Source: a virus (lineage: Duplodnaviria > Heunggongvirae > Uroviricota > Caudoviricetes). Taken from it: DNA of 4,813 nt. The DNA lies in IMG/VR virus record IMGVR_UViG_2563366830_000013. One strand, 5' to 3'. A program made the translations under genes and the position numbers. Below, one piece after another: positions 768-4,813 of the stretch. The notes under the pieces are model-generated. The model worked only from the letters and a program-made list of their open reading frames with translations, did no database searches and was not told where the DNA came from. The stretch's first letter is position 1, and each line of letters opens with the position of its first letter.

Positions 768-794
768 CCCGCAATATTTTGCGGGCTTTTTTTT
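768..794 (+). terminator. Rho-independent terminator-like hairpin (7-bp GC-rich stem CCCGCAA/TTGCGGG, 4-nt loop, then C + T8) immediately 3' of the tailspike stop codon
   Basis: Perfect inverted repeat 768-774/779-785 followed by TTTTTTTT at 787-794. The T-tract is on the plus strand, so it is canonical for plus-strand transcripts; on the minus strand (tailspike mRNA) the hairpin follows an A-tract and has no U-tract, so it may act bidirectionally or mainly stop convergent transcription. Confidence 0.6.
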
Positions 795-3700
795 AACGTT
801 CTTCCAGAGACTGAACCCGCTCTTTTATCTTATCCATTTCTCTGCGCTGCCATGCTGCCTCGATATAGAATAAGAGATCAGGTCTGACCCCCCATCTAGA
901 TCCTGCTGGCGTTATTTCAACGCGCTCAATGATGTCTTCTATTACCATCACTGGATTATCATCATCATCAACAATGATGCTCCCGTCATTATCAGTCAGC
1001 GGCATTTCCCTTTGGCCAGTAATGACGTCATCATATACTGCGGGATAATCGTCATAGCAAAGAAAGGCATAGCGGCATGTTGTGCTTTCTTCTTCCATGA
1101 GTCCGTGAGAAATAAGAACATCACGAAGTTGCTGCGCGATTACACCATGATGTATCCTCGCCCCTTCTTCCCCCTTTATAGCGACAGCGTTCAGCCATTT
1201 ATAAGCGATATACCTGACGTCACCCCAGGCATCCAGCAATGCTTCGTCAGGAGAGACCGGCTCTGTCTTTAATGTTCCGTCACTGGTAACCACAGGATTG
1301 GAGCCAAGATAAACTGTCGAGAACCTGTTTCCCGGACCACCAAGAGCATTTACATTATCAAGATAAGGTTTAACATCTCCGTTCTCAAAAAGATGTTCGA
1401 GTGCGTTATATACCGCGCGACGTGGAGTACTGCTTCCGGAACCATGCAACGTTATCATTGCACCATCTGCTGAAGACGTTGTTTCACCGCCGCTAACGAT
1501 TAATCTCTGAGCGGTAACATCATCAGACGGTACTTTCTTCGCAATAATGGCGTAATTACCCTCAAGTTTGACTTCCGCGCGAACTTGTCCTGATGTACCT
1601 GCATGGACAGTCAGTGACTGGACGGCAACATCATCTGTGAAATCAACGGGTACAGGAACCGTCCTCACGCCTGACGTCGACATAAAAGTAGGAAGCGTTC
1701 TGTTAGGAGTGGCTCCGTAGACAAAATCCCTTGAAACAAATTCTTCCTGTTTAATTTTCACCCTGAAACAATACAAATCAGCCGGGTGACCATCGTGAAC
1801 ATAAGGATATTTTCTGTTGTTATCCCCTATGCTCCATGGGTTTAGAAAGTCTTCCCCACCGAAAATGTAGTACAGCCAGTTGTCTTTGATACAAACTGAA
1901 CCAACACCAACCGCAGAGTTAACTATTCCGCCCTGATAAATCTGATCAGTAACATTAACCCACTCTACATTATCCAGACTCCACTCATTGACGTTAACTC
2001 TGGTCATAAATGTTCTTGGATAATTTCCTGCATAACGGTTATCAGGTTCTCCTCCTTCCCACTCACCAAATGCGCGCTCACTGCCAAAAATAATCAGCTC
2101 ATCGCCAACTTTGGCAAAAGGAAGGTTTGAGTGATGAACATTATTTGGGAAGCGAAGAGAATTCCATGATGTACCTAAATCAGAGCTTCTGTGCAATGAA
2201 CTACCGGGTTGAGTACTTAATGTCCCCCTGGTCGTCAGATACAGAATGCCATCATAATATTTTACACATGGCTCAGATGCATTCGCCTCATATTCTACAG
2301 GTATGCGTCTGCGAACAAAGCTACCAGGAGAACCGAAAGCATCAGAGAAATAGAGTATCCCAAGCTCGCGTGGACCAATATCACCATTATGGTAGCCAAC
2401 AGCAAAACTGTTATCGCTAATCGTCGCAAAACTGTGAATCTCAGTAACAGGAGTGCTTCCGTCAACAAAAGAAGGAATAGTTCCAAGACTGGTTTTTCTC
2501 CATGGTGACGAGTGAAATGATGTGCCAAAACTCCAGTATCTACCCTCGTTATTCTGATCCACATCCTGGGTATTTTGCGTCGTAACTGTAAAGGTATTTT
2601 TATCAATAACAGTAGTCACCGTCATATTCCCGGTAACACCTGTAACACCAGAGTTTGAGAAGTTGACAAAATCACCAGCAAATAATCCGTGATCAGTAAT
2701 GCGAATATAAGCGACTTGCTGATTTGCTGCTTTCGTTATACCACCATAAACGCGAAGGCTGCGACTCATTGGGCGATCCCACAACTCTGCAACCTGCAGT
2801 TTATTTCCTCTCACGGTCCGCGTCTCAATTACAGCAAAAAGGCGATTTCTGACAACCCCCATACTCATGCAGTGATAGTTAACTGTGGGATAGTTTTCAT
2901 GTAAATCTGTAAGCCATTCCGGCGTTGTCCAGGTCTTCCCGTCATCTCCTGAGCGAACCCATGCAACATGGAGGTTATTTACACCATGGCGGTCTCCAGC
3001 CATAAAAGGCGCATAGATGACATTGTCATATACAAACGTTTTATCCTGCGTCCAGGCGTTGTACCACGGTGTATCTGTAATTTTAAATAACTCTCCCTGG
3101 ATAAAATCTTCAGAAGCATAAAAAAGAGGCTGGCCCGGTATTCTCTCAAATAAAAAACGAGCATTTTTAAATCGACTGACATCCGGAAGAGTTGATACTT
3201 TAAAAGTAAGCCCTAATCCGTCAATTTTATAACCTGGAGATGAGGCTTCAAGGCACGCGCTTATTGCAGTGGAATCGTCATTTATACCATCACCAACAGC
3301 TCCAAAATCTTTGGGGCTAATAGCATCACGCATTTTATCCTGGAACGTTCGGTACACAGCCCCAGAACCATACTGAATAAACCAACCAAAACCACCAACA
3401 ACTCCGGCGATTGCAGCATCGACATAATTACGCATTGAGCGATTATTTACAGCGTCCTGCTCAAATGATGGATCTGCAAGGTTAGAAATTTTGTTTTGCT
3501 TTGCATCGTAATATTTTGCAAGCAAAGATGGTTTCATCAATGCACGTCTGAACCACCCAAAACATTGCTGGATCAGCATCGTCAGGTAGTCAAAGGCATC
3601 TTCATGCACTTCGGGGAAAAATTTTCCCTGATTGCGAAGGTCTGTGTCCTGCACTACATCAAGCACACGATCTATCGTAATTCGCCATCCAGTAGCAAGC

Positions 3701-3912
3701 GGAGACGGAAGAACCACAGAACCGCCACTATAAGTGCCCGCCCCAGTTACCGTATAACCGGTATCCAGGACCAATTCTGTTACGTTCCCGTTCAGGTCAG
3801 ACACCTGAACAACCAGGTCTGATTTTCTGAAAATTCGAAAAGTATACGGAAACGATGTCGTAACGCCGTTACCGGTGTATTCGTTGTGGTCAACTTCGGT
3901 TGAGACCGTCAT
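793..3912 (-). CDS. Phage tailspike/tail-fibre protein, 1039 aa: T7 gp17-like N-terminal adaptor domain, central endosialidase-like glycanase region with two Asp-boxes, C-terminal intramolecular chaperone (peptidase S74-like) domain
   Basis: Long uninterrupted ORF with SD (minus-strand CTGGAGATTTAAC-ATG). The N-terminal ~150 aa follow the T7 gp17 N-terminal pattern (YTGNGVTTSFPYTF…DYTV…DLRNQG…). Residues 202-215 DFGAVGDGINDDST. Two Asp-box motifs: SGDDGKTW (aa 321-328, nt 2929-2952) and SSDLGTSW (aa 576-583, nt 2164-2187). C-terminal ~160 aa carry a Ser877…Lys882 spacing (TSDGTLK) and …DAWGDVRYI…IHHGVIAQQLRDV…, consistent with a self-cleaving C-terminal chaperone domain. The overall pattern resembles K1F-type endo-N-acetylneuraminidase as I remember it; substrate specificity is not proven. 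Confidence 0.9.
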   Translation of the reverse strand: MTVSTEVDHNEYTGNGVTTSFPYTFRIFRKSDLVVQVSDLNGNVTELVLDTGYTVTGAGTYSGGSVVLPSPLATGWRITIDRVLDVVQDTDLRNQGKFFPEVHEDAFDYLTMLIQQCFGWFRRALMKPSLLAKYYDAKQNKISNLADPSFEQDAVNNRSMRNYVDAAIAGVVGGFGWFIQYGSGAVYRTFQDKMRDAISPKDFGAVGDGINDDSTAISACLEASSPGYKIDGLGLTFKVSTLPDVSRFKNARFLFERIPGQPLFYASEDFIQGELFKITDTPWYNAWTQDKTFVYDNVIYAPFMAGDRHGVNNLHVAWVRSGDDGKTWTTPEWLTDLHENYPTVNYHCMSMGVVRNRLFAVIETRTVRGNKLQVAELWDRPMSRSLRVYGGITKAANQQVAYIRITDHGLFAGDFVNFSNSGVTGVTGNMTVTTVIDKNTFTVTTQNTQDVDQNNEGRYWSFGTSFHSSPWRKTSLGTIPSFVDGSTPVTEIHSFATISDNSFAVGYHNGDIGPRELGILYFSDAFGSPGSFVRRRIPVEYEANASEPCVKYYDGILYLTTRGTLSTQPGSSLHRSSDLGTSWNSLRFPNNVHHSNLPFAKVGDELIIFGSERAFGEWEGGEPDNRYAGNYPRTFMTRVNVNEWSLDNVEWVNVTDQIYQGGIVNSAVGVGSVCIKDNWLYYIFGGEDFLNPWSIGDNNRKYPYVHDGHPADLYCFRVKIKQEEFVSRDFVYGATPNRTLPTFMSTSGVRTVPVPVDFTDDVAVQSLTVHAGTSGQVRAEVKLEGNYAIIAKKVPSDDVTAQRLIVSGGETTSSADGAMITLHGSGSSTPRRAVYNALEHLFENGDVKPYLDNVNALGGPGNRFSTVYLGSNPVVTSDGTLKTEPVSPDEALLDAWGDVRYIAYKWLNAVAIKGEEGARIHHGVIAQQLRDVLISHGLMEEESTTCRYAFLCYDDYPAVYDDVITGQREMPLTDNDGSIIVDDDDNPVMVIEDIIERVEITPAGSRWGVRPDLLFYIEAAWQRREMDKIKERVQSLEER

Positions 3913-4015
3913 GTTAAATCTCCAGATAGTCGCAGCACCCGTTGCGCCGCATATCTGGTTATTCTATTACCTGAAAAACCATATATGGATAAAAAGACTA
4001 TAAATACCAATAGAT

Positions 4016-4032
4016 ATTACCTTTCGGGTAAT
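4016..4032. promoter_or_regulatory. Palindromic candidate operator ATTACC-N5-GGTAAT in the divergent intergenic region
   Basis: Perfect 6-bp inverted repeat with 5-bp spacer. A near-identical palindrome ATTTACC-TTTGC-GGTAAAT recurs at 4395-4413, and isolated ATTACC half-sites lie at 3966-3971 and 4374-4379. The binding protein is unknown. Confidence 0.35.
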
Positions 4033-4068
4033 TTGCAAAACGTGCTGGATAGCAAACAAATTATTTGT

Positions 4069-4088
4069 TACTGTATAAACATACAGTT
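4069..4088. promoter_or_regulatory. LexA (SOS) box, near-consensus
   Basis: TACTGTATAAACATACAGTT matches CTGT-N8-ACAG and 17/20 positions of the E. coli consensus TACTGTATATATATACAGTA. It ends 19 nt upstream of the ATG at 4108 and would overlap any promoter for that ORF; it is also about 157 bp upstream of the divergently oriented tailspike start. Confidence 0.75.
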
Positions 4089-4107
4089 ATTGCATGGAGA
4101 AGATAAG

Positions 4108-4365
4108 ATGCAGCAGTATCACTATCCACTGGAAGACGGATTTACCGAAAGGATTCACACGCCGGGAGGCGTCAGGTCACTGGTGGAGGGATCGCACTTG
4201 ATGAAATTACTCCGGGATCTCGATAAGGATGGATTTAATGTCGATGGCCCACTTGCCGAACTGACTGCACTGATTAACTACGTCACCAGCTCACAGATGT
4301 CTATGCAGGATCTGCAAACACATCTCGACTATTGTGCCGAACAATTACGAAAACAAACCAGATAA
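4108..4365 (+). CDS. Hypothetical small protein (85 aa), putatively SOS/LexA-regulated; function unknown (candidate antirepressor or regulatory factor)
   Basis: ATG at 4108 preceded by GGAGA (4096-4100) at 7-nt spacing; stop TAA at 4363-4365. The ORF track's upstream in-frame ATG at 3985 has no SD and would make the LexA box coding, so 4108 is preferred. No transmembrane segment; no family recognised from the sequence MQQYHYPLEDGFTERIHTPGGVRSLVEGSHLMKLLRDLDKDGFNVDGPLAELTALINYVTSSQMSMQDLQTHLDYCAEQLRKQTR. Confidence 0.65.
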   Translation: MQQYHYPLEDGFTERIHTPGGVRSLVEGSHLMKLLRDLDKDGFNVDGPLAELTALINYVTSSQMSMQDLQTHLDYCAEQLRKQTR

Positions 4366-4504
4366 GGTTTGCAATTACCAAATGGAGTGCTTATATTTAC
4401 CTTTGCGGTAAATTTACATCGCACTCCTCTTGTGCCATAGTAATCGGGCACTGGCAAAATCCAGTGCCGGGATTGGTCTCCCGGATTACTACAGAGGCAC
4501 ATAT

Positions 4505-4524
4505 GCCGCATAAGCGGTTTTTTT
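4505..4524 (+). terminator. Putative Rho-independent terminator (short GC stem GCCGC/GCGG with 4-nt loop, followed by T7)
   Basis: GCCGCATAAGCGG followed by TTTTTTT at 4518-4524 on the plus strand, about 140 nt downstream of the 4108-4365 ORF and after a cluster of stable hairpins. The stem is short (4-5 bp), so it may be weak or conditional. Confidence 0.5.
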
Positions 4525-4678
4525 ATGTGTAAAGCGCACCTATTCTATGGTGGGCTGTGTGGGGGCACCGAAAGGTGCGCCGGGTTCCTTTGTAGCCGGT
4601 AAGACCAACTCTGCACAGTTCACCACCATCTGATTGGTCTCAGCGGTGGTGATTAACCTAACTACAAAGGTGATCGCT

Positions 4679-4813
4679 ATGAATACCAAACCTTCCATCT
4701 TTTCCTTTGAGTCATCCTGCCAGATCCGTATGTTCATGATTGACGGAGAACCTTGGTTTGTCACCAAAGATGTGTGCAATGCTTTGAATATTGATGTTAC
4801 ACAAGCGAGAAAA
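4679..4813 (+). CDS. Bro-N domain protein (phage antirepressor-like), N-terminal 45 codons; 3'-partial, continues beyond the window
   Basis: ATG at 4679 with SD AAAGG (4666-4670) 8 nt upstream; translation MNTKPSIFSFESSCQIRMFMIDGEPWFVTKDVCNALNIDVTQARK shows the Bro-N signature (F.F……IR…IDGEPWFV.KDVC.AL). Not in the ORF track because no stop is reached within the window. Confidence 0.8.
   Translation, partial: MNTKPSIFSFESSCQIRMFMIDGEPWFVTKDVCNALNIDVTQARK

Follow-up and report, generated by a model that had tools for sequence, protein, structure and literature searches.

Does the small gene that follows a strong LexA box in this phage DNA couple prophage induction to DNA damage, and does the Bro-N antirepressor gene downstream belong to the same device? 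An earlier inspection of the letters alone (the sequence-only reading) had proposed an SOS-dependent induction module built on an orphan gene. The window, meaning the whole 4,813-nucleotide stretch analysed here, was followed up by homology, covariance-model and comparative searches. The region very probably serves an epsilon15/phiV10-like (Uetakevirus) prophage as the SOS input to its lysis-lysogeny switch, with a separable IsrK/C4 antirepressor module downstream. The central features are a gene and a site in front of it:

4108-4365, plus strand: ant, encoding an 85-aa SPC32H-type antirepressor; ATG start, Shine-Dalgarno GGAG at 4096-4099, match to PDB 5D50 chain E
4069-4088, unstranded: LexA (SOS) box TACTGTATAAACATACAGTT, called from consensus match, heterology index and comparative alignment

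The 85-aa protein has a characterised relative, SPC32H Ant, of which a crystal structure together with its repressor Rep has been solved (PDB 5D50). A PDB sequence search gave one match, 5D50 chain E "Anti-repressor protein" (E 4.1e-47), with the alignment running end to end (residues 2-84 on 3-85). By tblastn against phage records the protein is 88% identical to one in Salmonella phages SPC32H and SPC32N whose gene carries the annotation ant, 84% identical to epsilon15 gp19, and 97.6-100% identical to proteins listed as "hypothetical" in phiV10, ZX5, TL-2011b and other E. coli phages. The gene is divergent from the tailspike gene in every Uetakevirus examined. The earlier description of an orphan without recognisable family, and perhaps an uncharacterised variant, thus gives way to membership of the SPC32H Ant family. 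The protein looked unrecognisable because it has no Pfam or NCBIfam model and falls in PHROG 450, listed as "unknown function"; the single match in the Pfam and NCBIfam searches, DUF724, was rejected at 17.6 bits against a threshold of 38.4. Also rejected was a 126-aa reading from an ATG at 3985, which would make the LexA box and an operator coding; the upstream indels have lengths not divisible by three, and the protein in the crystal has 86 aa. About 529 of 5,426 complete E. coli genomes hold the ant locus, under the RefSeq label "hypothetical protein".

In a review, Kim and Ryu 2013 (J Virol 87:11775) is cited as one of the cases of Salmonella prophage antirepressors under LexA control. Two further papers portray Ant as a tetramer that binds two Rep dimers and takes Rep off the DNA. 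The details of LexA control of ant are taken here from abstracts of the primary SPC32H papers, from GenBank annotation and from such secondary citations.

The presumed target is encoded in the same prophage. The window matches NZ_CP146681.1 1407283-1412095, on the chromosome of E. coli MS 196-1, at 100% identity and lies in a prophage inserted adjoining guaA, the attachment site shown for ZX5. A 194-aa HTH protein of this prophage (WP_000836293.1; L010:12431-13015; NZ_CP146681.1 1384430-1385014) matches the SPC32H repressor, 5D50_A, over its full length (E 3.5e-42). Pfam finds HTH_3 only, and by Pfam the Peptidase_S24 autocleavage domain is absent. Since this Rep homologue matches 5D50_A and is without S24, the target of Ant is present and is of the non-cleavable kind. 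Two palindromes in the window resemble Rep operators:

4016-4032, unstranded: ATTACCTTTCGGGTAAT, predicted Rep operator, a perfect ATTACC-N5-GGTAAT palindrome, conserved, in the tailspike/ant intergenic region
4396-4412, unstranded: TTTACCTTTGCGGTAAA, operator-like palindrome TTTACC-N5-GGTAAA, with two mismatches to ATTACC-N5-GGTAAT, abutting the -35 of the IsrK/C4 promoter

The first is kept in all eight aligned phages, and the second has a counterpart (ATTACC/TTTACC-N5-GGTAAA) at the same place in Tyrion, a Klebsiella phage, TL-2011b and ZX5. In the epsilon15 record, seven ATTACC-N5-GGTAAT sites carry the annotation of predicted "repressor" sites, three of them adjoining rep; here, too, the rep homologue is flanked by copies. 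These likenesses suggest that Rep may bind at both palindromes.

The MS 196-1 prophage is probably defective, because it has two IS3 insertions, one in a holin-like gene and one in the virion block, and has lost most of its tail genes; about 9 kb of the tail/ejection genes of epsilon15 are absent. Its switch may no longer yield phage production. One insertion, an IS3-family element whose 3′ end takes up bases 1-255 of the window (rve_3 ORF at 8-244), interrupts a holin-like membrane gene of the epsilon15 gp23 type; the remnant of that gene lies at 256-486 on the minus strand, and matches of other genomes to the window begin only at base 256. The second IS3 copy, in the same prophage and outside the window (L009 29960-33494), lies between two truncated virion genes. 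A YafO-family toxin gene with a small upstream ORF (L009 25686-26511) follows just 3′ of the Bro-N gene, an accessory stretch between the antirepressor module and the virion genes.

The insertions and the missing tail genes lend some weight to the strongest alternative, that the cassette is a relic or acts in trans: LexA-controlled ant would no longer induce its own phage, and would either be decaying neutrally or serve to inactivate the Rep of co-resident or superinfecting related phages. Crosstalk by antirepressors that act in trans is known from Gifsy and Fels prophages. However, none of ant, the box, rep and the operators is damaged here, and each is 96-100% identical to its counterpart in viable phages such as ZX5. 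We consider this alternative a serious one, if rather doubtful, and it bears on the consequence of the switch, not on its mechanism.

The spacer between ant and the Bro-N gene contains the following features:

4413-4441, plus strand: predicted promoter of the IsrK/C4/Bro-N unit, with -35 TTTACA, 17-nt spacer and extended -10 TGc-CATAGT; predicted start at about 4448; conserved in relatives
4448-4524, plus strand: IsrK-like sRNA, Rfam RF01394, 74.7 bits against a gathering score of 50
4473-4479 and 4489-4497, plus strand: a1 (TTGGTCT) and b1 (CTACAGAGG), C4 target mimics within IsrK; b1 has one mismatch
4505-4518 and the T run that follows, plus strand: intrinsic terminator of IsrK, from a terminator scan
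4543-4630, plus strand: C4-type antisense RNA, Rfam RF01695, 78.6 bits against a gathering score of 45
4587-4595 and 4602-4608, plus strand: C4 loops b′ (CCTTTGTAG) and a′ (AGACCAA), from fold and complementarity
4634-4640 and 4662-4670, plus strand: C4 targets a2 (TTGGTCT) and b2 (CTACAAAGG); b2 overlaps the Shine-Dalgarno of the Bro-N gene
4679-4813, plus strand: Bro-N antirepressor gene, 5′ part of a 230-aa protein, Pfam Bro-N; runs off the window

Judged by these matches, the spacer is a separate module of the P1 immI / Gifsy-1 IsrK type, with a promoter of its own that ends 6 nt 5′ of the start of the IsrK model. The sequence-only reading had noted a structured spacer containing a terminator, and that terminator is here identified as the one belonging to IsrK. 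A match to RF03163 (c4-a1b1) at 4435-4487 overlaps the 5′ half of IsrK and scores below threshold at 39.9 bits. Loop a′ of C4 can pair with a1 and a2 over 7 nt, and b′ with b1 and b2 over 9 nt. RF01695 matches above the gathering score are also found in five relatives, and there are two types of C4. The first is that of the window, Tyrion and the Klebsiella phage. The second, in phiV10, TL-2011b and ZX5, has a′ ACGCCAA with a1/a2 TTGGCGT, and b′ CCTTTTAG with b1/b2 CTAAAAGG. Between the types all three copies of each set (a′/a1/a2 and b′/b1/b2) are altered together, a covariation that speaks for the proposed pairing.

There is no leader ORF like icd or orf45, and no ORF stops where the Bro-N gene begins. 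Two coding readings of C4 were considered, a 28-aa ORF inside it (stop at 4633) and the 'ash family protein' CDS that the ZX5 record places atop it (L013 2163-2276). Both were rejected because the two C4 types differ by 2 nt in length, which changes the frame; the ZX5 CDS looks like an annotation artefact over a non-coding RNA.

The Bro-N gene had been named as a neighbour in the sequence-only reading. Pfam confirms the domain (E 1.4e-4 on the 45 aa in the window, E 1.8e-13 for all 230 aa, as read from the source genome), while the start is corrected from 4680 to 4679. Outside the window, residues 149-225 of this protein align with Ant itself (BLASTP, 42% identity, E 6e-16), and the C-terminus matches 5D50_E (E 9.1e-14). 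By these alignments the C-terminus of the Bro-N protein is an Ant paralogue, a modestly new point. The same Bro-N plus Ant-like architecture is common to Tyrion gp20 and to ZX5 ORF4, which is 81% identical to the protein here. In phiV10, all that p23 (194 aa, L001 4779-5458) retains of the Ant-like domain is its first 31 or so residues, and a 90-bp ORF, p22, comes next; this suggests a frameshifted or truncated copy.

When 1.84 billion cluster representatives were searched exhaustively with a profile, only 50 proteins proved to have the Ant domain, most of them stand-alone at 80-95 aa and a few with the domain behind Bro-N, AntA or Rha N-terminal domains. It was this profile search that found the fusions; a word-indexed protein search returned only close small orthologues. 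The ZX5 paper reports that overexpression of ORF4 lowered the prophage titre from 1e9 to 1e6 (about 1000-fold) and repressor transcription by 75%. It calls the small gene 'hypothetical protein' and is silent on LexA, SPC32H and the small Ant.

Do ant and the RNA module then form one unit? A LexA-derepressed ant transcript could read through IsrK, C4 and Bro-N as a single SOS operon, so that Ant and the Bro-N protein would act as one damage-induced unit. Between the ant stop at 4365 and IsrK there is no canonical terminator, only an imperfect hairpin at 4384-4427, and the Ant domain occurs in both proteins. Yet Ant works alone in SPC32H, and four relatives (SPC32H, epsilon15, BUCT554 and BUCT711) carry ant without the IsrK/C4/Bro-N module. 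Homology between phages stops exactly at the ant stop codon (matches spanning query positions 1-466 only), and a Klebsiella phage record shares the RNA module alone at the DNA level (query 508-782); ant and the RNA module are therefore separate recombination modules. Moreover, the RNA module brings with it a conserved promoter, operator-like site and terminator, and the IsrK terminator would halt most read-through. A single operon is thus unlikely. The earlier idea of a two-component system of Ant and Bro-N loses ground on the same evidence, the Bro-N gene having its own predicted promoter and its own RNA control.

Both the operator-like palindrome and the IsrK promoter's -35 lie inside the hairpin at 4384-4427 (GGAGTGC...GCACTCC, then UCUUGUG), which might serve as a weak terminator for ant transcripts; its phiV10 counterpart is a perfect 18-bp palindrome that takes the place of the -35. 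Klebsiella phage ST512-KPC3phi13.3 has two small genes in a row, each of about 85 aa, after the tail fibre gene and ahead of an IsrK/C4 module (L011 1088-1696). By tblastn there are two Ant-like places in this record, and the left arm of the LexA box there reads ATGT for CTGT.

Ant and the Bro-N protein may be two antirepressors that share a Rep-binding Ant fold and differ in their inputs: LexA and DNA damage for Ant, the Rep operator and a type-specific C4 countered by IsrK for Bro-N::Ant. As a positive-feedback or anti-immunity arm, the fusion could lock in induction, or attack the Rep of related prophages with a different C4 type, and the Ant domain would then be a portable repressor-targeting module. 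We offer this reading tentatively, its merits and its doubts being nearly in balance; activity of the Bro-N C-terminal domain against Rep is predicted from its likeness to Ant. In the literature searched, no paper stated this reading of two Ant antirepressors.

The SOS input depends on the box at 4069-4088. It agrees with the LexA consensus TACTGTATATATATACAGTA at 17 of 20 positions, a match reached by none of 200 dinucleotide-preserving shuffles, and it is the sole instance of CTGT-N8-ACAG in the window, with both arms perfect. Its heterology index is about 2.0, in the range of umuDC, recN and dinD; the matrix was made from 24 E. coli SOS boxes, and the values are approximate. The runner-up 20-mer in the window has an index of 14.2, and in about 60 kb of prophage and flanks the box is the single site with an index below 9. 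In epsilon15, likewise, the ant box is the single strong LexA site.

Comparison among relatives also supports the near-consensus box that the sequence-only reading had claimed here. The end of the box is 19 nt from the ant ATG and 7 nt from the Shine-Dalgarno, and the spacing to the ATG is the same in phiV10, SPC32H, epsilon15, Tyrion, BUCT554, TL-2011b and ZX5. At the loci of nine relatives the ant box is the top-scoring LexA site each time, ending 18-19 nt 5′ of the ant ATG; in the two Klebsiella phages among them the left arm is ATGT, not CTGT. In an eight-phage alignment of the tailspike-ant intergenic region its position is constant, its arms are kept and its centre is variable. Between SPC32H and SPC32N there are two base differences over a 3.2-kb stretch, one of them a C-to-A change in the CAG arm of the ant LexA box, at the place equivalent to 4084 in the window. 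Kim and Ryu are reported to have explained the lytic phenotype of SPC32N, in 2013, by a single LexA-site change that makes Ant constitutive, and the C-to-A change agrees with that explanation.

The box would act on a promoter that can be proposed from the same alignment:

4046-4074, plus strand: candidate ant promoter, with -35 TGGATA at 4046-4051, 17-nt spacer and extended -10 TGtTACTGT at 4066-4074; predicted start at about 4081; proposed from conservation

This call, of low confidence, rests on the invariant columns CTGGA-A and TG-TAC-TGT in the eight phages; a consensus scan at the LexA box found no 9-of-12 sigma-70 promoter. The box overlaps the -10/+1 of this predicted promoter, consistent with the earlier claim that it would occlude the promoter of the ORF.

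On the other side of the box lies the divergent tailspike gene:

793-3912, minus strand: tailspike gene (K1 endosialidase), Pfam End_beta_propel E 1.7e-232 plus four further endosialidase domains

Its product is built on an N-terminal adaptor of the epsilon15 type and comprises an N-terminal extension, a beta-propeller, a beta-barrel, and tail-spike and Peptidase_S74 chaperone domains. Of 5,426 complete E. coli genomes, 71 hold 80% or more of the window. A non-coding block at 3962-3990 (ATTCTATTACC...CATATATG), 5′ of the tailspike gene, is conserved, with parts invariant in eight phages, and may be a late promoter or an activator site.

It had been suggested that the LexA box also controls this tailspike gene. 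The box is palindromic and lies within the shared 195-bp intergenic region, but it is 157 bp from the tailspike ATG against 19 nt from that of ant, the conserved elements nearest the tailspike gene are the Rep-operator palindrome and the block at 3962-3990, which stand between the two, and no leftward promoter is predicted near the box. Joint control is accordingly most improbable. Finally, the notion that the box is a chance palindrome in front of an ORF that is not expressed (4108-4365) is, on the comparative data, already refuted, given the shuffling result, a position and arms kept in phages of E. coli, Salmonella, Enterobacter and Klebsiella whose Ant proteins are 58-100% identical, and the crystallised protein of a close orthologue.

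The favoured mechanism, LexA control of Ant with the RNA module as a second arm, can be put together as follows. LexA on the box, over the -10/+1 of the ant promoter, would keep ant silent; upon DNA damage LexA would cleave itself and the 85-aa Ant would be made. By homology to SPC32H Ant, it would bind Rep, an HTH protein with no autocleavage domain, and strip it from the ATTACC-N5-GGTAAT operators, leading to lytic transcription. The silencing by LexA, the release upon damage and the sequestration of Rep by Ant are predicted on strong orthology to a characterised system. We infer that Rep would also leave the operator-like site at the IsrK/C4 promoter, which would then give an IsrK-like sRNA ending at its own terminator and, by read-through, C4 and the Bro-N mRNA. 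C4 would pair with a2/b2 and block the Bro-N ribosome-binding site. The a1/b1 of IsrK are the same sequences, and IsrK could titrate C4 as a decoy. Bro-N::Ant might then reinforce or extend antirepression.

The proposal of the sequence-only reading that a LexA-repressed small antirepressor would allow induction without repressor autocleavage is well in line with the 88% identical Ant orthologue, the box at the same spacing in nine relatives and the non-cleavable Rep. Binding by LexA and Rep, and any activity in this probably defective prophage, are predicted from the DNA and its relatives.

LexA-controlled Ant is an already known and established induction switch of epsilon15-like phages, here re-discovered in a close E. 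coli orthologue, and the RNA module next to ant belongs to the known C4/IsrK class. What is modestly new is that the Ant domain is common to both antirepressors and occurs as a fusion module. The practical value is in annotation, as the gene is a "hypothetical protein" in RefSeq, is without a Pfam or NCBIfam model, has "unknown function" in PHROG 450, and went unnoticed in the only experimental study of a near relative in E. coli (ZX5). Recognising ant explains the sensing of DNA-damaging antibiotics by these prophages, including those carrying a K1-specific endosialidase in extraintestinal E. coli. An RNA-controlled Bro-N antirepressor that ends in an Ant paralogue leads to a testable model in which a single repressor is under two-input control.

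Several known systems can be compared. In coliphage 186 Tum, Gifsy GfoA/GfhA and N15 AntC, as here, a LexA box represses a small antirepressor of a non-cleavable repressor. Pfam, NCBIfam and PHROG gave no link of Ant to antirepressors of the 186 Tum or Gifsy GfoA type; these systems are functional analogues only, because within these searches no sequence family is shared.

The SPC32H Ant/Rep/LexA system (PDB 5D50/5D4Z) shares the 88% identical protein of 85/86 aa encoded divergently from the tailspike gene, a LexA box equally far from the ATG, and a homologous non-cleavable Rep with palindromes of the ATTACC-N5-GGTAAT type. It differs in its host (Salmonella there, E. coli here) and in that nothing lies between ant and the virion genes, whereas here the IsrK/C4/Bro-N module follows ant; Rep is also more diverged (E 3.5e-42) than Ant (88% identity). 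phiV10 and vB_EcoP_ZX5 are closer, with 97.6-100% identical Ant, the same LexA box position and an IsrK/C4 module, and ZX5 also shares the guaA integration site and ORF4, 81% identical to the Bro-N antirepressor. Both have the other C4 specificity type, and the records of both call the small ant homologue 'hypothetical protein'.

The immI operon of P1 and P7 consists of the c4 antisense RNA, icd and ant; a′/b′ of c4 pair with a1/b1 and a2/b2, and the C1 operator Op51 lies at the promoter. The module here likewise has a C4-family RNA whose two loops face an upstream and a downstream target pair, the downstream pair on the ribosome-binding site, and it has a repressor-operator-like site at the promoter; the covariation of types recalls the c4 heteroimmunity of P1 and P7. 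Unlike immI it has no icd-like leader ORF, b2 overlaps the Shine-Dalgarno of the antirepressor gene itself, and in place of P1 Ant1/2 it has an antirepressor that joins Bro-N to an Ant domain.

The isrK-orf45-anrP locus of Gifsy-1 has an IsrK with a leaky terminator, then a C4/CI-like RNA (STnc1160) and then an antirepressor gene, and the same prophage carries a separate LexA-controlled antirepressor, as here. There the processed RNA STnc1160, 3′ of IsrK, is complementary to IsrK, and IsrK activates translation of the antirepressor (Hershko-Shalev et al., 2016; PMC4825925). The window differs in having no coupled leader ORF of the orf45 type and no AntQ branch. Gifsy-1 isrK-orf45-anrP is the closest characterised locus to the RNA module in the spacer.
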